DNA of 64,000 nt from Dehalococcoidia bacterium (GTDB lineage: Bacteria; Chloroflexota; Dehalococcoidia; Bin125). Shown piece after piece: positions 1,500 to 62,545 of this stretch. Position 1 is the stretch's first letter, and each line of letters begins with the position of its first letter. The stretch is taken from assembly GCA_965203165.1 (NCBI GenBank), contig OZ241849.1, positions 1,680,563 through 1,744,562 of the forward strand, read 5' to 3'. The notes under the pieces were generated by a model, which saw only the letters and a program-made list of their open reading frames with translations, was not told the origin of the DNA and ran no database searches. Both the position numbers and the translations under genes were made by a program.

Positions 1500-2401
1500 G
1501 ACTGCCGGAACTCCGTTGCGATCTCGTTGATGAAGCGGTCCATCTGCTCGGTGCGCTCGAAGGCGTTCGCGCCCAGCGTGAAATCGGGGATGATCAGCTC
1601 GTCGACGCCGACATCGATGTACTCCTGCACAGTGCGCAGCAGCTCGTCGCGCGAGCCGCCCAGCACGGGGCGTCCCGACGCGCGGGCGCGGGCGACGCGC
1701 TCCTCGTCGTCGCTGTAGAGCAGCAGCGTGCAGGCGGAGCGCTGAATTTCGGCCGGGTCGCGCGCGAGATCGCGGCAGTGCGCGTCGAGCACCCCGTTCT
1801 TGTGCCGCAGCACCTCGGGGGTTCCCCAGACATTCCACTCGGTCGCGTATTGCGCGGTAATTCGCAGCGTGCGCTTCTCGCCGCCGCCGCCGATCATCAG
1901 CGGCAGCGGCGTCTGGATCGGCTTGGGTTCCAGCGGCGCATCGACGAGCTGGTAGTGCTCGCCCTCGAAATTGCTCTTCTGGTAGCGGAACAGGTCGGTG
2001 ACGATCCGGCAGGCCTCTTCGAGCTTGTCCAGCCGCTCGCGGATCGTGCCCAGCGGGATGCCGTAGGCGGTGTGCTCGCGCTCCTGCCAACCCGCGCCGA
2101 GCCCCAGGATGAAGCGCCCGCCGGAGACGACATCGATCTGCGCCGCCATCTTGGCCACGACGGCCGGGTGGCGGTAGGTGTTGCCGCTGACCATGTGGCC
2201 CATGTGGATGCGCGGGATGCGCACGGCGAGGGCGCTGAGCACGACCCAGCTTTCGTGCTGCGTTTCGTCGTTCTGCTCCGCCACGGGCATGAAGTGGTCG
2301 GCGAACCAGAGCCGGTCCCAGCCGGTCTGCTCGGCGTGGCGGCTGACATGCAGCACCTCCGCCCAGGGATTGGCGGCGGACGGCCAAAATCCGAATCGCA
2401 T
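1496..2401 (-). CDS. LLM-class (luciferase-like monooxygenase) F420-dependent oxidoreductase
   Basis: 301-aa product with typical LLM motifs (WFADHF, GRFILGLGAGW, TIM-barrel flavin/F420 fold family). Confidence 0.85.
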   Translation of the reverse strand: MRFGFWPSAANPWAEVLHVSRHAEQTGWDRLWFADHFMPVAEQNDETQHESWVVLSALAVRIPRIHMGHMVSGNTYRHPAVVAKMAAQIDVVSGGRFILGLGAGWQEREHTAYGIPLGTIRERLDKLEEACRIVTDLFRYQKSNFEGEHYQLVDAPLEPKPIQTPLPLMIGGGGEKRTLRITAQYATEWNVWGTPEVLRHKNGVLDAHCRDLARDPAEIQRSACTLLLYSDDEERVARARASGRPVLGGSRDELLRTVQEYIDVGVDELIIPDFTLGANAFERTEQMDRFINEIATEFRQS

Positions 2402-6059: not shown

Positions 6060-6520
6060 ACTCCGTCACACCCGCGCCCACAGCTCCGTCATACCCGCGC
6101 TTGCCGCGGGTATCTCGCCGTGCCGAGCACCAAGCCCCGTTCCCGCCACCGCCACCGTCATACCCGCGCCCACAGCTCTGTCATACCCGCGCTTGCCGCG
6201 GGTACCCCGCCGCGCCGAGCACCAAGCCCCGTTCCCGCCACCGCCACCGTCATACCCGCGCCCAAAGCTCCGTCATACCCGCGCTTGCCGCGGGTATCTC
6301 GCCGCGCCGAGCACCAAGCCCCGTTCCCGCCACCGCCACCGTCATACCCGCGCCCAAAGCTCCGTCATACCCGCGCTTGCCGCGGGTATCTCGCCGCGCC
6401 GAGCACCAAGCCCCGTTCCCGCCACCGCCACCGTCATACCCGCGCCCAAAGCTCCGTCATACCCGCGCTTGCCGCGGGTACCCCGCCGTGCCGAGCACCA
6501 AGCCCCGTTCCCGTCACAGC
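6060..6520. repeat. 92-bp tandem repeat, about 5 units, each carrying a REP1 hairpin (tacccgcg-cttgc-cgcgggta). Flanked by 43-bp direct repeats (agcaccccaaacccacccccgccacttaccaagacctaccaaa) at about 5950-5995 and 6515-6560
   Basis: Period of 92 bp between successive gtcatacccgcgcttgccgcgggta occurrences (6089, 6181, 6273, 6365, 6457). Confidence 0.85.
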
Positions 6521-6625: not shown

Positions 6626-7831
6626 CTAAGAGTGTTGGGAGAAAGAGAGACGCAGGTCGGCGAGGAGCAGCCCGGGAATCTCCATGGCCGGAAAGTGGCC
6701 ACCCTCGGGGAACTCGGTCCAGTGCGCGACATTGAAGGCGCGCTCGCACCAGCTGCGCGGAGGCAGCGGGGTGCCGCGCACCAGCCGGGCGAAGCCGGTC
6801 GGCACGGCGACGCGCTCGCCCTCGCGCAGCCGCACCTGCCCGCCCAACTCGGCCTCAACCTCCGCCGCCGGCCGGCCGGCCTCGTGGTAAATGCGCATCG
6901 AGGAGTTGATCGTCTCCGTGAACCAGTAGATCGAGATGGTCGCGAGCAGCTCATCCATCGTGAAGCGGCGCAGGATGTCGCCGCCGCGCGGCGCCTCCTC
7001 GGGGCGCATGCAGTCGCTGAGCATCCACCACTTATCCACAATCCAGGCCGCGAGCCCGACGGGCGAATCGGCCAGCCCGTAGGAGAGCGTTTGAAAGCGG
7101 GTGCCGTGGATGGCGCGGTGAGCGGCGTCTTCGCGCACGTAGGGCGCCTGCTCGTCGCGGAAGAAGCGCTCCTCTTGCTCGGATTGCGCGCGCGCGGCCG
7201 CGCCGGGCGGGGCGAGGGCGGCGGCGGTGAGGTGCAGCGCGCGCAGCCGCTCCGGATGGCGCAGGCCCAGTTGGCCGCCGACCGCCGCGCCCCAGTCGCC
7301 GCCGTGATAGGCGAAGCGCTCGTAGCCGAGCTCGCGCATCAGCCGCGCCCAGAGGTCGGCGATGGCGGCCGGGCCGAGGCCGGCGCGGCGGGGGATGTCC
7401 GACCAGCCGTAGCCGGGCAGCGAGGGCGCGACGACGTGAAAGGCGGGCGCGGTCGGATCGTCGGGCTCGGCGAGCGCGTCGATGATCTTGTGGAATTCGT
7501 AGACGGAGGAGGGCCAGCCGTGCTGGATCAGCAGCGGAACAGCGTCGGCGCGCGGGCTGCGGCGGTGGATGAAGTGGATCCGAAGCGTCTCGCCGTTGGC
7601 GCAATCAAGCGGAGCGCGAAATTGCGGGAAGGCGTTGAGCCGCCGCTCAACGGCGCGCCAGTCGAAGCGCTCAACCCAGTGCTCGCAGAGCTCGCGCAGG
7701 AACGCAAGCTCGACGCCGTAGAGCCAGGCGGAGCCGGGCACTTCAGGCAGCCAGCGGGTGTTGCGCAGGCGCTCGCGCAGCGCCGCGATTTCGGCGTCGG
7801 GAACGGCGATGGTGTAGCGCTCGGGCTGCAT
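6626..7831 (-). CDS. Epoxide hydrolase (microsomal-EH-like N-terminal domain plus alpha/beta hydrolase)
   Basis: EHN domain motifs and the HGWP oxyanion motif. Paralogous to the adjacent gene. Confidence 0.85.
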   Translation of the reverse strand: MQPERYTIAVPDAEIAALRERLRNTRWLPEVPGSAWLYGVELAFLRELCEHWVERFDWRAVERRLNAFPQFRAPLDCANGETLRIHFIHRRSPRADAVPLLIQHGWPSSVYEFHKIIDALAEPDDPTAPAFHVVAPSLPGYGWSDIPRRAGLGPAAIADLWARLMRELGYERFAYHGGDWGAAVGGQLGLRHPERLRALHLTAAALAPPGAAARAQSEQEERFFRDEQAPYVREDAAHRAIHGTRFQTLSYGLADSPVGLAAWIVDKWWMLSDCMRPEEAPRGGDILRRFTMDELLATISIYWFTETINSSMRIYHEAGRPAAEVEAELGGQVRLREGERVAVPTGFARLVRGTPLPPRSWCERAFNVAHWTEFPEGGHFPAMEIPGLLLADLRLSFSQHS

Positions 7832-7840
7832 CCCCCGCGC

Positions 7841-9022
7841 CTAGCGCAGCGGGCGGAAGAAGTCGCGGATGTCCTGCACCAACAGATCAGGCTCTTCGAG
7901 AGCGGCGAAATGGCCGCCGCGGTCGTGCACCGACCACTGCTGGATGTTGTAGCCCGCTTCGCACCAGCTGCGCGGCGCCGTGATGATCTCGCCGGGGAAA
8001 ATCGAGAAGCCGGTCGGCGTTTCGAGCCGCCCGGGCAGAAAGTTCTCCGCCTGGTTCTGGCGCATCTCGTAGTAGTAGCGCGTGCTGCTGTTGATCGTGC
8101 CGCTGAACCAGTAGATCGAGATGTTGGTCAGAATCTCGTCCTTGCTGAAGCGCTTCTCGATCTCCCCGTCGCAGTCGCTCCAGGCTCGCCACTTCTCCGT
8201 GATCCAGCCCGCCAGCCCGGCCGGCGAATCCGTCAGGCCGTAGGCCAGCGTTTGCGGCCGCGTGCCCTGGATCGCCTGATAGCCCGTCTCCTGCGCCTGC
8301 CATTCAGCCATCTTGGCGGCAATCGCCTTCTCCTCGTCGCTCCACTCTTCCTGCGGGCGGTCCGTGGGCGGGCGGCCGATCGGCATGTTGATCTGCGCGC
8401 CGACGCAGTTCTCGGGATGCTGGTAGGCGACCTGCGCGGTGACGATCGCGCCCCAGTCGCCCCCCTGCGCGCCGTAGCGCTCGTAGCCGAGCTGCTTCAT
8501 CAGCGCGCCCCAGAGCAGCGCCGTCCGCTTCTGCCCGAAGCCGCCGGCCGCGGGAATTTCCGAGAAGCCGTAGCCGGGCAGCGAGGGCGCGACGACGCTG
8601 AAGGCGTCGGCCGGGTCGCCGCCGTGCGCGGCCGGATCGGTCAGCGGACCGAGGATCTTGCTGACCTCATAGAAGGTGCCCGGCCAGCCGTGCGTAAAGA
8701 CGAGCGGCAGCGGGTTGGGACCCACGCCCTCCTGATGCACGAAATGCACCGTGTAGTCGTCCACCCCGTCGGCGCTGACCGCTTCGGTGAACTGCGGCAT
8801 GCGGTTGAGGTAGGTCTCCTGCACGCGCCAGTCGAAATCGTTGCGCCAGTATTCGCAGAGCTCCTGCATGTAGGCCAGGTTGGAGCCGTACTGCCAGCCG
8901 CTGTCCGCCACTTCGGAAGGCCAGCGGGTCTGCGCCAGGCGGCGCTTGAGGTCGCGCAGGTCGGTGTCGGTGACTTCGATCGTGAAGGGCTGCGGCATTC
9001 GGTCGGTCCTCTCCCGGCTCAA
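7841..9022 (-). CDS. Epoxide hydrolase, tandem paralog
   Basis: The same architecture as 6626..7831 (THGWPGTF). Confidence 0.85.
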   Translation of the reverse strand: MSRERTDRMPQPFTIEVTDTDLRDLKRRLAQTRWPSEVADSGWQYGSNLAYMQELCEYWRNDFDWRVQETYLNRMPQFTEAVSADGVDDYTVHFVHQEGVGPNPLPLVFTHGWPGTFYEVSKILGPLTDPAAHGGDPADAFSVVAPSLPGYGFSEIPAAGGFGQKRTALLWGALMKQLGYERYGAQGGDWGAIVTAQVAYQHPENCVGAQINMPIGRPPTDRPQEEWSDEEKAIAAKMAEWQAQETGYQAIQGTRPQTLAYGLTDSPAGLAGWITEKWRAWSDCDGEIEKRFSKDEILTNISIYWFSGTINSSTRYYYEMRQNQAENFLPGRLETPTGFSIFPGEIITAPRSWCEAGYNIQQWSVHDRGGHFAALEEPDLLVQDIRDFFRPLR

Positions 9023-35134: not shown

Positions 35135-35208
35135 TGGGGATTGGTCTAGTGGTAGGACGACTGACTCTGGATCAGTTAGCGGGGGTTCGAATCCTCCATC
35201 CCCAGCCA
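35135..35208 (+). tRNA. tRNA-Gln (anticodon CUG), CCA encoded
   Basis: Manual cloverleaf: acceptor tggggat/atcccca, D-stem gtct/ggac, anticodon stem actga/tcagt with loop ctCTGga, T-arm ggggg-ttcgaat-cctcc. Coordinates are +/-2. Confidence 0.85.
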
Positions 35209-35237
35209 ACCTGCCAAATCGTCCTGATTTGCCGCGT

Positions 35238-35314
35238 GGGGCATTCGTCTAGCGGCCTAGGACACCGCCCTCTCAAGGCGGAGATCGGGGGTTCGAATCC
35301 CCCATGCCCTACCA
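35238..35314 (+). tRNA. tRNA-Glu (anticodon CUC), CCA encoded
   Basis: Manual cloverleaf: acceptor ggggcat/atgccct, D-arm tcgtctagcggcctaggac (E. coli tRNA-Glu-like), anticodon stem ccgcc/ggcgg with loop ctCTCaa, T-arm ggggg-ttcgaat-ccccc. Coordinates are +/-2. Confidence 0.85.
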
Positions 35315-38234: not shown

Positions 38235-39328
38235 GCGGCTCTGGCGGCGCTGGGCTGCGGGTGATTGACTTTCGCAGCGACACGCTGACGCTGCCTTCGG
38301 CGGGGATGCGGGAGGCGATGGCGGCGGCGGCGCTGGGCGACGATGTGTTCGGCGAGGATCCGACGATCAACGAGTTGGAGCGTCGGGCGGCGGCGGTGGC
38401 GGGCAAGGAGGCGGCGCTGTTCGTGGCTTCGGGCACGATGGCGAATTTGACTTCGCTGCTGGCGCAGACGCAGCCGGGCGACGAGTTGATTGTGGGGCGT
38501 CTGGCGCACATTGTGCGTTCGGAGGCGGGCGGGGTTTCGCGGCTGGGTGGCGTGCTGGCGACGATTGTCGAGCAGGACGCGGACGGGGGGATTGATCCGG
38601 GCGCGGTGGCGGCGGCGGTGCGGACGGACGACATCCATCAGCCGCGCACGTCGCTGCTGGCGCTGGAGAACACGCACAATTTCTGCGGGGGGGCGGCGCT
38701 GCCGCCGGCGCGGATGCGGGAGTTGGCGGATACGGCGCACGCGCACGGTCTGCGGGTGCATGTGGACGGGGCGCGGATTTTCAACGCGGCGATCGCCTGC
38801 GGCTGCTCGGTGGCGGAGTTGGCGCGGGAGGCGGACAGCGTGTGCTTCTGCCTGTCGAAGGGTTTGGGCGCGCCGGTGGGCTCGGTGATTTGCGGCGATG
38901 GGGCGTTCATCGAGGAGTGCCGGCGGGTGCGCAAGCTGCTGGGGGGCGGCTGGCGTGAGGCGGGGATGCTGGCGGCGGCGGGGCTGTACGCGCTGGAGCA
39001 CAATGTGGAGCGGCTGGCGGATGATCACGACAATGCGCGTCGGCTGGCGCGGGGGCTGGCGGAGTTGGGCTATCCGATTCGACCCGAGGCGGTGCAGACG
39101 AACATCGTGATTTTTCCGCTGGAGCCGAGCGAGGCGCAGCCCAATCCGGCGCGGGGGCTGAGCGAGCGGCTGGCGGAGTTGGGGGTGCGGACTTCGCCGA
39201 TCGGGCGGGCGCAGCTGCGCTTTGTGACGCATCTGGATGTGGATCGCGCGGATGTCGACGAGACGCTTGGGCGGATTGCGGCGGCGGGCGTGGCGCCCGA
39301 TGTCGGGCCAGAGGGAGTCGCGCGTTGA
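38216..39328 (+). CDS. ltaE: Low-specificity L-threonine aldolase
   Basis: Beta-eliminating-lyase family motifs (FRSDTLTLP, ASGTMANL, PLP lysine CLSKGLGAPVGS). The true start may be the GTG at 38231. Confidence 0.8.
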   Translation: MGAGLVSGSGGAGLRVIDFRSDTLTLPSAGMREAMAAAALGDDVFGEDPTINELERRAAAVAGKEAALFVASGTMANLTSLLAQTQPGDELIVGRLAHIVRSEAGGVSRLGGVLATIVEQDADGGIDPGAVAAAVRTDDIHQPRTSLLALENTHNFCGGAALPPARMRELADTAHAHGLRVHVDGARIFNAAIACGCSVAELAREADSVCFCLSKGLGAPVGSVICGDGAFIEECRRVRKLLGGGWREAGMLAAAGLYALEHNVERLADDHDNARRLARGLAELGYPIRPEAVQTNIVIFPLEPSEAQPNPARGLSERLAELGVRTSPIGRAQLRFVTHLDVDRADVDETLGRIAAAGVAPDVGPEGVAR

Positions 39329-40077
39329 AGTTCGCGCGCCGCATTCTGGCGCTGGGGGGGGCGATCGTGGCGCTGGCGGCGCTGGCGGGCTGCTCGTCGC
39401 CGTCGCAGTTCGATGATCCGACCAATCCGGTGGCGCAGATTCCCTGGCCGGACTATGAGCGGTTGAGCTACGCGATTCTGGATCAGACGGATACGGAGTT
39501 GGGCACGTTTGTGATCGAGGTGGAGCGCGAGGGGGATGAGTGGGTGTTCACGCAGCGGTTCGATTTGGCGGCGACGGTGGAGGTGCGGCGGCTGCGGGTG
39601 GACGCGGAGACGCTGCGGCCGATTGAGCAGTCGCTGGAGTCGGAGTCGGGGGAGGAGCGGGTGAGCGTGCGCGGGGTCTACGGGGTCGATGCGGAGGGCG
39701 GGCTGTATGTGGATGCGGTGGTGGAGCAGGACGGGGAGCGGAAGTCGGAGCGGGTGGCGGCGGGTGAGTTCGCGTTCGACAACGACAGTTCGCCGTGGCT
39801 GTGGCGGAGCGTGGCGTTCGGGCCGGATTTGGAGTTGACCTATCGGTCGGTGAATGTGTTTCAGCGCCGGTCGCAGTTGGTGCAGTTGGCGGTGCGGGGT
39901 CAGGACACGCTGCGGGGTCCGGAGGGGGATGTGGTGGTGTGGCAGGTGGTGGTGACGCCGGGTGTGGAGATCAGTCGGGCGTGGTACGAGGTGGATGCGC
40001 CGCATCGTCTGATTCGGTGGGATCAGCAGCCGCGGCGGTATTTGCTGCGGGAGGTGTCGACGGTGCGGGGGGAGTGA
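39325..40077 (+). CDS. Hypothetical lipoprotein (signal peptide plus LAGCSS lipobox)
   Basis: TTG start overlapping the ltaE stop. Lipobox present. Confidence 0.5.
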   Translation: MKFARRILALGGAIVALAALAGCSSPSQFDDPTNPVAQIPWPDYERLSYAILDQTDTELGTFVIEVEREGDEWVFTQRFDLAATVEVRRLRVDAETLRPIEQSLESESGEERVSVRGVYGVDAEGGLYVDAVVEQDGERKSERVAAGEFAFDNDSSPWLWRSVAFGPDLELTYRSVNVFQRRSQLVQLAVRGQDTLRGPEGDVVVWQVVVTPGVEISRAWYEVDAPHRLIRWDQQPRRYLLREVSTVRGE

Positions 40078-40293
40078 TCGGGGGTGGGGCGGCGATGCGC
40101 GGCGGCCTGCCTCTGGCAGGATGCTCACTTTTCCACGTTATCTACAACGCCTCTCCAGCTCGCCTTGGCTGCCTAGTTCCCAGCTCGCTCAGGCTCACAT
40201 CACGCTGCTCACCGTCGCGCGCCCGTATCCCCTCTCGCTTCGGCTCTATGGGCGCTCTCGCCGCCGCCATCGCCTTCGCGCCCATCTGGTCAG

Positions 40294-42771
40294 ATGAAAA
40301 AGCTCGCTGTCGTGCCGGGGACGCCCGTCGCACATGCGCGGGCTGCGCTGCCGGGATCGCGGCCAGATTCGGACGGCGGCCGAGTGTGGAGCCTGGCTGC
40401 CTCGCATGCGAGAATACATGATTGCGCGATACCTGATCTCGGGGGGAGGGGGGGGATACGATCCCTCGTCCGTAGCCCCTGGCGGCTGACCCTTGCGCTG
40501 GCGGCGCTCATCGCCGTCGCCGCGCTAGCCGTCTTCTCTCTCAACACGCCGGTGAACGCCGACGCCTACCAGCCCGAGGTCCTGTTCGGTTCATGCACTG
40601 AGGTGACGGAACCGGTGTGCGTGGACGAAGAGGAACCCGGCGACGACATTGAGGTGATGGGCCTCAAGGCCATCCAAATTTCGTCGGGCACCAGCTTCGT
40701 CCTGACGCTCGGCCACGACGGCACCATCTCCTGCTGGGGCGAAACCGACGCGGTTGAGGCGATTCTCTGTGGCGTGCCGGACATCAAAGTCCAGCGGGGC
40801 AACAATGTGCGCCTGACCGCCGGCGAGAAGGCGGTTGTCGTTCTCAACGCTCACGGCCGCCCGGCGATCGATGAGACCGGCCAGGAGCCGACCCAGGGCA
40901 ACCGCTACCTGGTCGATCAGGAGGAAGTCCGCTGGTCCCAGGTCGCGGCCGGCAATGTGCATTCTTGCGGCATCACCACCGAGGGCGAGGTCTACTGCTA
41001 GGGCTCGTCCCGCGTTCTCCCCGCCATCCTGATCCCGATGGGACTTCTCGGGCTGGAAACAGACCGCGAGATCCCCAACCCGCGCTTCTATAAAGTCGCC
41101 GTGGGCGACGCGCACATCTGCGTGCTGGAGCACGAGGCGAACGTGAACAGCGACGGTGATGTGCTCATGGGGGACACCCAAGTCCGCGCCGGTCAGATTG
41201 CCGCCGGCAGCATCGTCTGCTGGGGCGACAACTCCTCCGGCTAGACCGATGTGCCGGGCGATCCGCATCCCGCCCACCGACCGCCACTTGCGCCCGAGGC
41301 TGCGTCGCCCAGCGGCGATGCCGGTGGCCCCGACAGCGATGGCACTCCCGAGTCGAAGCACATGTACGTCGACGTCACCGCCGGCGCCAACCACACCTGC
41401 GCAGTGCGCACCAGCGGCATTGTCGACTGCTGGGGCAGTGACTCACACGGCCAGAGCAGCGTGCCGATGCAACTGCGGGTGGAATTCGATCCGCCGTCCC
41501 AACCGGCGGTGATCGGCCCCGATGGTCAGTTGACGACTCTGGAGGAGGCCCGCCAGGGCCGGTTCCACAGCATTGAAGCCGGCGAGAACTACACCTGCGC
41601 GATCAACGCTGAGGGCGGCACGCTGTGCTGGGGCGCCAACATCGGCGCGAACCCGAGCGCGGTTGAGACCGTCAGCGACGCGGGCGTGGGCGGCACCGGC
41701 GAAACCGCCGTCACGAGCATGAGCATTGAGGCCGGCTACGCGGCAGGCCAGGAGTACCCGCCGGCCGGCGAGTACACCCAGATCAGCGCGGGCCGCTGGC
41801 ACGCCTGCGCGCTGCACACCTGGGACGAATTCCCGATGCGCGCCGTGAACCCTGAGGCTCCCGAGCCGGCGGCGCTGCAGGCGGTGGACGCTTCCGGGCG
41901 GCCGATCGAGCCGACGCTGCAGATCTCGCTCTCGGACGGAGCCCCTGCCAATCTGGACTGCTGGGGCAACGACGCCGGCCTCGACGGATCGGGCGGCCGG
42001 ATCAACACTGGTCGCGCAGTTCCGCCCAGCGATCTGATTCGCCGTACCAATGACAACCGGCAGGCGAGGATCACTCCTCTCAGCTGGAATCAGATCTCGG
42101 CCGGCGGCACCTTCAGCTGCGGCATCGTCAACATCGCCGGCGGCGTCGGTTCGCCGCCGCCCACTAGCGCAGGAGCGGCTGACGGCGGCCTCTTCAGCGC
42201 GACGGCGGCTGTGGAGGAAGGCGCAGTCGCTTGCTGGGGCCTCATCAACGACAACGATGTCCCGTCTCCTCACGTGATCCACACCAGGGGCACGACAAAG
42301 ATCGTCACAGTGTGCAGCGACGAAACGGTCGGCGGCAAGGCAACCATCTCCGATGGCTGGGGCAAGATCCGCGGCCGCGTTTCCGACGAGGGCGGCTTGC
42401 AGCTGGCCTTCAGTGTGATCCAGACCGGCCCGGACTTCTGGATCGAGCCGGAGTTCGGCTTCGTGCCGAGCGAGGGCAACATGGCGGTCGGCCGCTGGTA
42501 CTACAGCGAGATGATGAGCGTGCCGCGCTACGCCGACAGCGGAACGGGCAAGCCGCTGGACGCCTCAGCGTGCGACTGCGGCGACATGCAGGTCGGCCGG
42601 ATCGCGGTGCGGCTGCTGCCCAGCGGGCACTGGGAGCTCGCGCTGGCGACGCCCACCGGCGACGATCTGGTGATGGCCAACCTCCCGGACAACCACAACC
42701 GCGTTCCCACCCCGGCCGAGACCGGCAAGTGGTGGACCACCGACTGGATCAAGTGGCACGACGCCCCCTAG
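40294..42771 (+). pseudogene. RCC1-repeat (beta-propeller) membrane-anchored or secreted protein interrupted by two in-frame TAG codons (at 40999-41001 and about 41245-41247). Either a pseudogene or a candidate for amber read-through
   Basis: The three track ORFs (40294..41001, 41038..41244, 41251..42771) share one frame. The TAGs sit where the repeat consensus has W (GEVYC-TAG-G vs TISCWGE) and Q (CWGDNSSG-TAG-TDVP vs CWGSDSHGQSSVP). Confidence 0.5.
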
Positions 42772-43086: not shown

Positions 43087-43330
43087 CCTCCGTCATACCC
43101 GCGCTTGCCGCGCGCGGATATCTCGCCGCGGTGAGGGCCAAGCAACCGTCCACGCCTCCCACAGCCTCGCGCGTCACCCCCATTGGGTGCCGCCGGACAT
43201 CTGGATTGGGGTGTTGCGCTGCGCGAGAGGGTCTGCGCAGGAACGACCGGAGAGGGTGGCGGAGGCAGGCGCGGGGCTCCGTGCAGAGCTCGGCGAGATA
43301 CCCGCGGCGAGCGCGGGTATGACGGAGTTG
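43087..43330. repeat. MITE-like unit: inverted REP1 copies (43089-43130 and 43293-43328) bracketing about 160 bp
   Basis: ccgtcatacccgcgcttgccgcg ... cgcggcgagcgcgggtatgacgg in inverted orientation. A GTTCACAC flank motif lies at about 43044. Confidence 0.5.
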
Positions 43331-43391
43331 ATTTAGCGCAGGTAGGGCGGAGTTGGAGGGCGGGGGTGGCGGGGTGGTGGTGGTGTGGGCG

Positions 43392-55961: not shown

Positions 55962-56230
55962 TGTTCACACTTCTCTAGATCCGTCATCCCGCGGCGAGCG
56001 CGGGTATGCGGGTCAATTTCGCGCGCGGGGTGGGGGAGATGGGAGCGGGGGCTTGGTACGCAGCGCGGCGAGATACCCGCGGCGGAGCGCGGGTATGACG
56101 GTTTTGCTTCGCGCGGGTGTGGCGGAGGTGTTTGCGCGGGTGTGGCGGAGGTGTTTGCGCGGGGGTGGCGGAGGTGTTTGCGCGGGTATGGCGGAGGTGT
56201 TTGCGCGGGGGTTGCGGGGTTGTTGCGTGG
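55962..56230. repeat. Two REP1 hairpins plus a 23-bp x4 tandem (ggtgtggcggaggtgtttgcgcg), preceded by a GTGTTCACAC flank
   Basis: Seen directly in the sequence. Confidence 0.85.
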
Positions 56231-56242
56231 GGCGCGCGCCCG

Positions 56243-59212: not shown

Positions 59213-59727
59213 CAGTCGTCTTCGCGCTCGCGTTTGCGGCGTAGTTCTTCTTCCGCGCGGCACCTCGCCCCGCCCCAGATGTCCGGCGGCGCTTGGATGC
59301 CGCCTTCGCGGGGGTGGGGAGCGCGGGAGACGGGGACGGGGTTTGGTGCTCAGCGCGGCGAGATACCCGCGGCAAGCGCGGGTATGACGGAGTGGGGGGT
59401 GCGGGGGTATGACGGAGTGGCGAGCGCGGAGGTGTCGGAGTGGGGAGCGCGGGAGACGGGGACGGGGTTTGGTGCTCAGCGCGGCGAGATACCCGCGGCA
59501 AGCGCGGGTATGACGGAGTGGGGGTGCGGGGGTATGACGGAGTGGCGAGCGCGGAGGTGTCGGAGTGGGGAGCGCGGGCATGACGGAGTGGGAGCGCGGG
59601 GGTGTCGGAGTGGGGAGCGCGGGTATGACGGAGTGGGGGTGCGGGGGGTGTCGGGAGAGGGAAGCGTGAACAGGCTTTAGTCGTCTTCGCGCTCGCGTTC
59701 GCGGCGCAGCTCTTCTTCCACGCGGCG
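59213..59727. repeat. REP1-rich insert (two roughly 120-bp higher-order units) bracketed by 48-bp direct repeats. The left repeat is a duplicated 3' end (last 14 codons plus stop) of the minus-strand gene 59677..60117
   Basis: Left tcagtcgtcttcgcgctcgcgtttgcggcgtagttcttcttccgcgcgg vs right ttagtcgtcttcgcgctcgcgttcgcggcgcagctcttcttccacgcgg. Confidence 0.8.
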
Positions 59728-61584: not shown

Positions 61585-62545
61585 CACTTCCGTCATTCCT
61601 GCCTGTGCGGGAATGACGGAAGTGCGGTGCAGGTGTGGCGGGGGCAGTCGCGGGGCTCCGTGCTGTGCGCGGCGAGATACCCGCGGCGAGCGCGGGTATG
61701 ACGGTCTTCTCTCGCGCGGGTGTGGCGGAGCTGTCTTGCGTGGGTACGACGGTCTTCTCTCGCGCGGGTGTGGCGGTCTTCTCTTGCGCGGGTGTGGCGG
61801 AGCTGTCTTGCGTGGGGTGGCGGTGGTGGGGCGCAGGTGTGGCGGGGGCAGTCGCGGGGCTCCGTGCTGTGCGCGGCGAGATACCCGCGGCGAGCGCGGG
61901 TATGACGATTTTCTCTCGCGCGGGTATGACGGTCTTCTCTCGCGCGGGTACGACGGTCTTCTCTCGCGCGGGTGTGGCGGAGCTGTCTTGCGTGGGGTGG
62001 CGGTGGTAGCGCGCAGGTGTGGCGGTGGCAGTCGCGGGGCTCCGTGCTGTGCGCGGCGAGATACCCGCGGCGAGCGCGGGTATGACGGTCTTCTCTCGCG
62101 CGGGTGTGACGATTTTCTCTCGCGCGGGTGTGGCGGTCTTCTCGCGCGCGGGTATGACGGTCTTCTCTCGCGCGGGTGTGGCGGAGCTGTCTTGCGTGGG
62201 GTGGTGGAGCTGTCTCGCGCGGGTGTGGCGGTGGCAGTCGCGGGGCTCTCCGTGCTGTGCGCGGCGAGATACCCGCGGCGAGCGCGGGTATGACGGTCTT
62301 CTCTCGCGCGGGTGTGACGGTCTTCTCTTGCGCGGGTGTGGCGGAGCTGTCTTGCGTGGGGTGGCGGTGGTGGGGCGCAGGTGTGGCGGAGCTGTCTTGC
62401 GTGGGTGTGGCGGAGCTGTCTTGCGTGGGTGTGGCAGAGCTGTCTTGCGTGGGTGTGGCAGAGCTGTCTCGCGCGGGTGTGGCGGTGGTGTTTTGCGCGG
62501 GTGTGGCGGTGGTGTTTTGCGTGGGGTGGCTGGCGCATGCGGGAT
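61585..62545. repeat. Higher-order tandem array of about 960 bp: one REP2 hairpin, then four roughly 200-bp units, each holding a REP1 hairpin (61674, 61877, 62057, 62266) followed by 24-bp tandem repeats (tcttctctcgcgcgggtgtggcgg / agctgtcttgcgtgggtgtggcgg)
   Basis: Seen directly in the sequence. Fills the divergent intergenic region between the SDR gene and the penicillin acylase gene. Confidence 0.85.

Follow-up and report, generated by a model that had tools for sequence, protein, structure and literature searches.

Two amber codons and an out-of-frame G tract in a probably recently inactivated RCC1-like propeller gene of a Dehalococcoidia bacterium

The RCC1 gene in the 64-kb stretch of DNA that we analysed (hereafter, the window) is most likely a recently inactivated allele of a gene for a predicted secreted or membrane-anchored, seven-bladed RCC1-like propeller, carried by what is probably a sponge-associated Dehalococcoidia bacterium. 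Two premature TAG codons sit where the orthologs have sense codons, and the native start is also out of frame, as in a pseudogene; these lesions are very probably ordinary loss-of-function mutations, with no recoding involved. In addition, a run of G residues behind the native start, which is conserved in relatives, suggests that the RCC1 family may be a poly-G phase-variable (contingency) gene, a reading that we favour by a modest degree.

Translated as a single frame, positions 40294-42771 of the forward strand contain two internal stops and one terminal stop, all of them TAG (Table 1). Single-frame tblastn HSPs against three relatives (L001, L007 and L010) span both internal stops, covering residues 51-825 or 55-825, and no frameshift was found within the gene body in these comparisons. 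Because homology crosses both stops without a frameshift, the locus is one interrupted gene and a chance run of ORFs is ruled out. A sequence-only reading of this DNA had already placed the three ORF pieces in the same frame, which the translation bears out; the length of 825 aa that it gave is an overestimate, because the poly-G tract that follows the native start and puts it out of frame was overlooked; the intact orthologs are 777-803 aa long. The first 54 codons of ORF piece 1 (40294-40455; 41-54 codons by homology) probably represent a non-native 5' leader, which joins the body frame only through the present length of the G tract. Specifically, residues 1-53 were found by tblastn in a frame other than that of the body in L006, L007 and L008, and L001 has no ATG at the position equivalent to 40294.

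Table 1. Features of the RCC1 locus (positions in the window).
Feature	Position	Strand	Description
ORF piece 1	40294..41001	+	235 codons, closed by the first TAG
Native start ATG	40418..40420	+	Assigned by homology; ATG ATT GCG CGA TAC CTG ATC TCG (MIARYLIS)
Interrupted poly-G tract	40441..40455	+	G6-A-G8 (15 nt); matches the G11-G16 tract of the orthologs
Predicted signal peptide or N-terminal membrane anchor	40456..40566	+	IRSLVRSPWRLTLALAALIAVAALAVFSLNTPVNADA; conserved in all homologs
Seven-bladed RCC1-like beta-propeller	40630..42240	+	Pfam, motifs, fold matches
Premature TAG number 1	40999..41001	+	TGG>TAG; replaces the invariant Trp in the C-W-G of blade 2 (VYC*GS)
ORF piece 2	41002..41244	+	80 sense codons and TAG; blade 3
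Premature TAG number 2	41242..41244	+	CAG>TAG; replaces the conserved Gln in CWGDNSSGQTDVP
ORF piece 3	41245..42771	+	508 sense codons and stop; blades 4-7 and C-terminal domain
C-terminal beta-rich domain	42286..42768	+	About 160 aa; conserved throughout the ortholog group
Natural terminator TAG	42769..42771	+	Same position in L001, L006, L007 and L008

The encoded protein matched Pfam RCC1_2 (PF13540) in four stretches at 86.8 bits (cut-off, 22) and RCC1 (PF00415) at 24.6 bits (cut-off, 21.7); the score against PF25390 WD40_RLD, 91.9 bits, was under the cut-off of 150. Seven C-W-G motifs start at 40732, 40996, 41218, 41428, 41626, 41959 and 42232. The AlphaFold model of one ortholog, P0001 (pLDDT 66), matched UVR8, RCC1/Prp20 and BLIP-II (Foldseek E values, 1e-11 to 1e-9), and its N-terminal segment is modelled as a helix at residues 21-40; on the basis of its charge, hydrophobic and A-x-A pattern, this segment is predicted to be a Sec signal. 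The protein is thus like BLIP-II of Streptomyces exfoliatus (PDB 1jtd_B; Foldseek E = 3.8e-11) in combining a seven-bladed RCC1-type propeller with an N-terminal export signal, the latter predicted here. LegG1/PieG of Legionella is also a bacterial RCC1-like propeller. Sequence identity is only 13-18%, however, and the present family differs in having at its C-terminus an additional conserved domain, about 160 aa long, that belongs to no known family and gave no Pfam match.

Both premature stops fall on conserved residues. The first lies at a position occupied by Trp in 36 of 36 aligned homologs, and the second, which follows the third C-W-G motif (CWGDNSSG*TDVP), at a position occupied by Gln in 33 of the 36. 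Each is a single transition (G:C>A:T) found in the window only, TGG and CAG being kept in L007, L006, L009 and L001; judged from these alignments, the ancestral codons are TGG and CAG. The comparison with the DNA of these four relatives agrees with the sequence-only reading, which had attributed the ambers to single transitions, from TGG at the Trp of C-W-G and from CAG at the Gln of G-Q-x-x-V-P. Two ambers are also what would be expected, because about 57% of the possible nonsense mutations in this GC-rich gene yield TAG (probability of TAG given a nonsense mutation, 0.57-0.58), and CAG>TAG (24%) and TGG>TAG (18%) are both among the three most likely nonsense classes. More generally, G:C>A:T transitions account for 13 of the 23 substitutions specific to the window. 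We considered but rejected a particular mutational signature (a deaminase context or Dcm-type CCWGG), since the C-A-G context shared by the two sites follows from the codon identities, and DGR-type mutagenesis was rejected as well, the changes being G>A and C>T with adenine not targeted.

A third lesion lies upstream. An ATG equivalent to the native start of the window aligned in L001, L002, L006-L009 and L011-L014, with a GAGGA Shine-Dalgarno sequence at this ATG in L001, L002, L011 and L014, and N-termini of the M-x-x-R-x-L-x-S-GGGG type were found in 13 homologs. Read from this ATG, the window sequence ends after 23 codons: the interrupted tract is out of frame with the start (the in-frame condition being n = 1 mod 3) and constitutes a lesion of the window allele besides the two TAGs. 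Scanning the surroundings of the gene for sigma-70 promoters gave no match, and terminator matches did not rise above background.

We found that the four closest alleles, all from sponge metagenomes, are each disabled by a different lesion. Specifically, L007 and L008, which are separate records, share a TAG at a different Gln; L006 combines a deletion that breaks the frame with a TAG at yet another Gln and a W>R change in a C-W-G motif; and L009 has a 1-nt deletion. The genes flanking these alleles are called at full length, contain the Pfam domains expected of them and show 95-98% nucleotide identity in alignments whose gaps are all in frame, and the RCC1 propeller gene is the fastest-evolving gene of the neighbourhood. 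The dN/dS ratio between the window and its relatives is 0.40-0.52, not about 1; together with a gene body free of frameshifts, this suggests that the lesions are recent relative to the divergence of the alleles. In the window lineage alone, the ratio is about 0.6 (15 non-synonymous and 8 synonymous changes), a value that cannot separate constraint from neutrality. More distantly, the sole ortholog found in a search of genome contigs, in the Dehalococcoidia MAG OZ251457.1, is 50% identical, and the sole relative found in a search of metagenome contigs is 24% identical.

A G11-G16 tract is present at the same position, 15-23 nt past the ATG, in 11 relatives with 29-90% amino acid identity, and it is the only homopolymer of at least 9 nt in the 159 kb examined. 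Tract lengths were 11, 13, 14, 15, 16 and 22 nt, with three relatives in frame and eight out of frame, calls that are soft because runs of 11-16 G are error-prone in both short- and long-read assemblies. L011 and L012, which might be two assemblies of one sample, are identical over 3,079 nt save for G16 in one and G13 in the other, a change that preserves the frame. The alleles L001, L002, L011/L012, L013 and L014 are out of frame yet have intact bodies, and intact in-frame alleles also exist, for example P0001 and P0003. The family therefore has a long homopolymer (taken as about 8-9 nt or longer) in its 5' coding region and frame-changing length differences between related alleles, with the reservation that these lengths are error-prone, and these are features of phase-variable genes. 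Owing to the tract, most members of the family are truncated or given a wrong start by gene callers, which also split L007 in a way similar to the window.

The composition of the tract suggests that it matters as DNA. Glycine is encoded by GGG in 13% and by GGC in 79% of cases, so that the chance of four GGG codons is 0.13^4, or about 3e-4, per allele, and the tract stays a pure G run in the orthologs while adjacent codons change. Because a pure GGG run is kept despite this low usage, down to 29% amino acid identity, the tract appears to be maintained by selection at the DNA level. Programmed frameshifting of fixed direction at the tract was rejected, as a -1 shift would be needed in five independent alleles and a +1 shift in two (L011/L012 counted as one). 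The 59-aa leader does not appear to be a cassette used on other proteins: a protein search with it gave no matches, and tblastn against the DNA of the window and its relatives found it in RCC1 genes only.

The same data bear on the possibility that this clade is losing the gene by plain decay, without any switch, the tract being neutral or a Gly4 linker. All four of the close alleles sampled are broken, and homopolymer lengths are unreliable in assemblies, both of which fit such a history. A glycine linker, however, would be expected to use GGC rather than four or more GGG codons, the purity of the run outlasts the divergence of its neighbouring codons, and the out-of-frame alleles retain intact bodies in a family whose dN/dS is below 1; we therefore regard plain decay as rather unlikely. 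Less likely still is a sequencing or assembly artefact, or a minority-variant consensus, with the population having TGG and CAG and an intact gene. As sequencing errors, two independent stop-creating substitutions inside 243 nt of a single gene would make an odd pattern, neither TAG site lies in a homopolymer, the independent assemblies of the closest relatives have lesions of their own in the RCC1 gene, and the TAG common to L007 and L008 comes from different records.

Amber suppression or programmed read-through, in which both UAGs would be decoded by a suppressor tRNA (Gln or Trp) or by near-cognate tRNA-Gln(CUG) or tRNA-Trp to give a full-length secreted propeller, was the alternative raised by the sequence-only reading. 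As in natural amber suppression and pyrrolysine decoding, the UAGs lie in frame within an otherwise intact ORF: the frame continues past both stops, the 508 downstream codons still look coding, and all four premature stops in the clade of the window and its close alleles are TAG. Such a run of four, however, has a probability of about 0.11 by chance under the mutation bias. TAG is a working terminator in this organism. It closes 17 of 48 crude ORFs in the window, about one third. Housekeeping genes whose domains are complete end in it, and the genes so terminated include those for KAS, a Mur ligase, a class-I aldolase (Pfam match to residue 340 of 342) and a dienelactone hydrolase (249 of 252). 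The interrupted gene itself shares one terminal TAG with its orthologs. On this terminator usage, reassignment of the TAG codon was rejected. Unlike in amber suppression or pyrrolysine decoding, where TAG is depleted as a terminator and UAG positions are conserved, the premature TAGs vary in position by lineage, with TGG or CAG in relatives at the sites of the window and no TAG conserved. No tRNA-CUA was found within the window or the 11 related loci; an Rfam scan gave two tRNAs and nothing else, and the local tRNA-Gln has the normal CUG anticodon (CTG in the DNA). Elsewhere in the 64 kb, an in-frame TAG flanked by coding signal was seen in one place only, and the sequence there turned out to be two adjacent epoxide-hydrolase genes, each complete on its own. 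Moreover, sister alleles bear frameshifts that suppression would be unable to rescue, and the native start of the window is out of frame regardless of the TAGs. We conclude that decoding of the two UAGs is very improbable and unsupported, whereas the other option of the sequence-only reading, a fresh pseudogene, is supported by lineage-specific stops at conserved residues and by the absence of any sign of recoding in the DNA examined. Equally improbable is a functional split gene, in which the 506-aa piece from GTG 41251, whose ORF opens two codons past the second TAG, or the N-terminal 235-aa fragment would work alone: although L007 is split likewise by gene callers, the downstream piece has no signal peptide and lacks three of the seven blades, no homolog shows a split architecture as its conserved form, and the shorter database calls are explained by out-of-frame G tracts or lesions.

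Among known systems, the window allele resembles ordinary nonsense pseudogenes in that lineage-specific transitions created stops at conserved residues, intact orthologs exist and no recoding machinery was found. It differs in that the gene has been hit repeatedly and independently in sister lineages and has a hypermutable tract, and for these two reasons its decay resembles the end state of a switchable gene rather than random erosion. Genes that vary in phase through homopolymeric tracts are known from Neisseria meningitidis (poly-G in hmbR and hpuA), Campylobacter jejuni, Bordetella pertussis and Mycobacterium tuberculosis (PMC3786947, PMC8355987, PMC1891110, PMC10334774), and contingency genes with such tracts have been surveyed in general (PMC2831843). 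As in poly-G contingency genes, the RCC1 tract is a run of 11-16 G within the 5' part of the coding sequence for a predicted surface or secreted protein, near-identical alleles differ in length by numbers of nucleotides not divisible by three, alleles in frame occur alongside alleles out of frame, and some alleles (the window, L007 and L010) appear 'locked', their tract having been interrupted or lost. Unlike the contingency genes of pathogens, the putative RCC1 switch belongs to uncultivated Dehalococcoidia (Chloroflexota) of sponge metagenomes, and its tract is conserved in orthologs down to 29% identity. A literature search combining phase variation, homopolymeric tracts and Dehalococcoidia found no paper.

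The opa genes of Neisseria have a (CTCTT)n repeat within the signal-peptide coding region. The RCC1 repeat similarly comes after the start codon and before the hydrophobic core of the predicted signal peptide, and because the repeat precedes the core in both cases, in-frame length changes would alter only a tolerant leader. The opa repeat, unlike that of RCC1, is a pentanucleotide rather than a homopolymer, and the protein families are unrelated.

A history of the following kind may account for the window allele. Slippage of the conserved G tract between the start codon and the signal peptide would switch expression, and alleles would at times be OFF and unexpressed, so that a disabling mutation arising then would escape selection. 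In the lineage of the window, the tract is interrupted by an A, which leaves G8 as the longest pure run and should make slippage much less frequent; the allele would since have gained its two nonsense mutations, both of highly probable classes. Only truncated products would now be expected, either a peptide of 23 codons if translation begins at the native start or a fragment of 235 aa if it begins at ATG 40294, and neither one would be a functional propeller. For the family as a whole, we give about even chances to the proposal that the G11-G16 tract is an expression switch across the exported RCC1 propellers of sponge-associated Dehalococcoidia, acting through slippage on DNA (classical phase variation) or during transcription, and that selection against expressing a eukaryote-like protein, imposed by host or phage, explains why out-of-frame alleles predominate and why knock-outs recur, the two TAGs of the window included. 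If slippage were transcriptional, the out-of-frame alleles would be partly expressed.

The amber codons themselves represent the textbook death of a GC-rich gene, in which a single transition is enough to turn CAG or TGG into TAG, and they should not be counted as evidence of recoding. For annotation, members of the RCC1 family are prone to being mis-started or truncated by gene callers at the tract. More useful than the ambers is the combination of a conserved hypermutable tract with repeated knock-outs in a gene for a predicted exported, eukaryote-like propeller. If the tract is a real switch, it would represent the first description of a contingency locus in Chloroflexota or among sponge symbionts; sponge symbionts would then share the stochastic on/off strategy of mucosal pathogens, and the RCC1 propeller would be a candidate for a molecule seen by the host or by phages.

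The RCC1-repeat gene of the window reads as one frame broken by two stops ahead of the terminal one, all three being TAG (table). In an alignment of 36 homologs, the first premature TAG fell at a position that is W in 36/36 sequences and the second at one that is Q in 33/36, so that the sequence-only description of a single RCC1 frame with ambers at conserved W and Q positions is correct. Both were window-specific singletons with TGG and CAG as the ancestral codons, in agreement with the proposed TGG to TAG and CAG to TAG changes, and are ordinary transitions; G:C to A:T transitions made up 13 of the 23 window-specific substitutions. The allele has been disabled three times, by an out-of-frame G tract, W236* and Q317*. 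It is most probably a fresh pseudogene allele, one of the two options first proposed, since the transitions at conserved residues are confined to this lineage, TAG terminates and the tract is out of frame; the two ambers, real but ordinary, are the expected outcome of GC to AT mutation pressure. Ordinary loss of function, with no recoding, is thus very probable.

The stop-masked product matched Pfam RCC1_2 (86.8 bits in four stretches; cut-off 22 bits) and RCC1 (24.6 bits; cut-off 21.7 bits) and contained seven C-W-G motifs. With its stops repaired, the sequence matched intact database orthologs 777-803 aa long at 77-82% identity, and beyond these homologs of gradually decreasing identity, reaching about 29%. 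The AlphaFold model of one intact ortholog (P0001), of moderate confidence (pLDDT 66), comprised a propeller preceded by an N-terminal helix (residues 21-40) and followed by a C-terminal, beta-rich domain of ~160 aa, and its top Foldseek matches in the PDB were UVR8, RCC1/Prp20 and BLIP-II (E about 1e-11). BLIP-II is a secreted Streptomyces inhibitor. The conserved leader of the family, R/K-rich and followed by ~20 hydrophobic residues and VNADA, may serve to export the protein or to anchor it in the membrane. The genes flanking the window gene shared 80-83% nucleotide identity with the complete chromosome of a Dehalococcoidia MAG (OZ251457.1, locus L002); that MAG carries an ortholog at 50% identity. 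Contigs of the nearest relatives are labelled PANK22-1_SAMN1229xxxx, which suggests that they were re-assembled from the sponge metagenomes of Pankey et al. 2022, a paper that PMC13083261 cites as a data source.

Thirteen homologs shared the N-terminus M-[IL]-x-R-x-L-x-S-G-G-G-G followed by the leader, corresponding in DNA to an ATG, seven codons, a G run and the leader. The start first proposed, ATG 40294, has no counterpart in L001, its equivalent lies in another frame than the gene body in L006 and L007, and in the window it owes its match to the frame of the body solely to the length that the tract now has; by homology, the native start is ATG 40418. Every homopolymer of at least 9 nt in 159 kb of related DNA was a 5' G tract of an RCC1 gene. 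As glycine is encoded by GGG in 13% and by GGC in 79% of cases in the window genes, one would expect a linker under selection as protein to lose its pure G run. L011 and L012, possibly from one sample, were identical across 3,079 nt but for G16 versus G13. Homopolymer lengths, on which all frame calls depend, are error-prone in assemblies.

Features of the window and of related loci bearing RCC1 orthologs (L numbers); frame is relative to the native ATG and depends on assembled tract length
Feature	Location	Strand	Description
RCC1-repeat gene	window 40294-42771	+	two TAGs as lesions
TAG 1	window 40999-41001	+	TAC TGC TAG GGC; W of second C-W-G motif
TAG 2	window 41242-41244	+	TCC GGC TAG ACC; Q after third C-W-G motif (CWGDNSSG*TDVP)
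Terminal TAG	window 42769-42771	+	
G tract	window 40441-40455	+	G6AG8, 15 nt, out of frame; stop 23 codons after ATG 40418
G tract	L006		G13, in frame; lesions: out-of-frame deletion, TAG at another Gln (CEKEM*VG), W to R in C-W-G motif
G tract	L007/L008		22 nt, G6AGGTG12, in frame; lesion: TAG at another Gln (GQEPA*GNRY)
G tract	L015 (29% identity)		G14, in frame
G tract	L001		G14, out of frame
G tract	L002; L012; L014		G13, out of frame
G tract	L009		G16, out of frame; lesion: 1-nt deletion
G tract	L011		G16, out of frame
G tract	L013 (41% identity)		G11, out of frame
No tract	L010		frame not applicable
G8 run	window 39354-39361		~30 nt into DUF3108 gene (39325-40077) directly upstream of RCC1 gene; no run of at least 8 there in L006
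Non-coding	window 40078-40417		upstream of RCC1 gene
Divergent RCC1-repeat paralog	L002 2663-4183	-	23-25% identity; few kb from L002 ortholog; no long homopolymer
Epoxide hydrolase, upstream	window 7841-9022	-	ends at separating TAG 7841-7843
Epoxide hydrolase, downstream	window 6626-7831	-	ends at TAG 6626-6628
tRNA-Gln(CTG)/tRNA-Glu(CTC) pair	window 35135-35314; L002 9044-9227; L011 2059-2260; L012 85-158		
REP-like repeats	window 6063-6517, 43255-43372, 56087-56231, 59376-59666, 61622-62530; L001 16220-16680; L002 about 1980-2270		

All four of the closest allele lineages (83-90% amino acid identity) were broken, each differently, with no lesion common to different lineages. Compared with intact orthologs, the window body is free of frameshifts, and window-L007 dN/dS was 0.51, indicating that the knock-outs are recent relative to the nucleotide divergence of about 6%. 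The RCC1 gene evolves fastest among the genes of its neighbourhood: between the window and L006 it was 91% identical (dN/dS 0.44), as against 95-98% (0.19-0.31) for the flanking genes. The upstream non-coding segment, at 97%, exceeded the RCC1 gene and about equalled the best-conserved neighbours.

On its tract anatomy, we are inclined to regard the RCC1 family as a contingency gene, phase-variable by its poly-G tract. This anatomy, as read from assembled sequences, agrees with classical homopolymeric-tract phase variation (PMC2831843, PMC8355987, PMC3786947, PMC10334774). Slippage in the tract would switch the gene on and off, and since OFF periods would hide it from selection, disabling mutations may accumulate. 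The G to A change interrupting the tract in the window and L007 lineage would be expected to slow switching, and may lock the window allele out of frame. Plain decay with an incidental G tract is unlikely; the otherwise intact bodies of out-of-frame alleles (L001, L002, L011/L012, L013 and L014) and a family-wide dN/dS of 0.4-0.5 suggest that the gene is maintained despite the many consensus alleles in which its frame is off.

That an assembly artefact produced the TAGs is improbable. Amber suppression decoding both, the other option of the sequence-only reading, is highly unlikely, because TAG terminates translation in this organism, tRNA-CUA is lacking from the sequences searched, the TAGs are singletons and nonsense mutation is biased. 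TAG ended 17 of 48 crudely called ORFs in the window, including genes for a class-I fructose-bisphosphate aldolase and a dienelactone hydrolase, whose Pfam matches reach residues 340 of 342 and 249 of 252, a beta-ketoacyl synthase and a Mur ligase, and it follows the C-terminal peptide DWIKW[HY]DAP in the RCC1 genes of the window, L001, L006, L007 and L008. The suggested search for a suppressor tRNA (ARAGORN, Rfam) found only tRNA-Gln(CTG) and tRNA-Glu(CTC) in the 64-kb window, and no tRNA-CUA there or in any related locus. A six-frame scan of the window revealed no other in-frame TAG between coding-type stretches except where two epoxide hydrolase genes (EHN plus alpha/beta hydrolase) adjoin; these are tandem paralogs in one frame, each separately complete, with 10 nt between them. 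That both stops are amber is uninformative, since TAG accounts for 57-58% of possible single-base nonsense mutations in this GC-rich CDS, whether the substitution spectrum is taken as uniform or as observed, with CAG to TAG (24%) and TGG to TAG (18%) within the top three classes. A functional split gene is equally hard to credit.

In L002 and L011/L012 the RCC1 gene follows the tRNA pair at a distance of 500-700 nt. In the window 5 kb separate the two, and the block between them (35.7-40.1 kb) has the opposite orientation to that in L002, indicating that a rearrangement took place beside the RCC1 gene. The neighbours of this gene differ among genomes, with purQ/purL downstream in L001 and L010, PIN/RHH upstream and gltX downstream in L011, and ECH upstream and DUF429 downstream in L013, so that it belongs to no conserved operon. 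Also abundant between genes are REP-like repeats whose palindromic core is GCGCGGGTATGACGG / CCGTCATACCCGCGC; they occur in tandem arrays (e.g. a 92-nt unit in 4.9 copies with 96% match, and a 24-nt unit in about 18 copies) and are common to related Dehalococcoidia genomes.

Our literature search found no paper combining phase variation, homopolymeric tracts and Dehalococcoidia, and no phase-variable contingency gene seems to have been described yet for this phylum and habitat. The conserved, length-variable poly-G tract in these putatively exported RCC1 propellers is a notable by-product of following up the ambers, and the family probably joins the phase-variable contingency genes already known.
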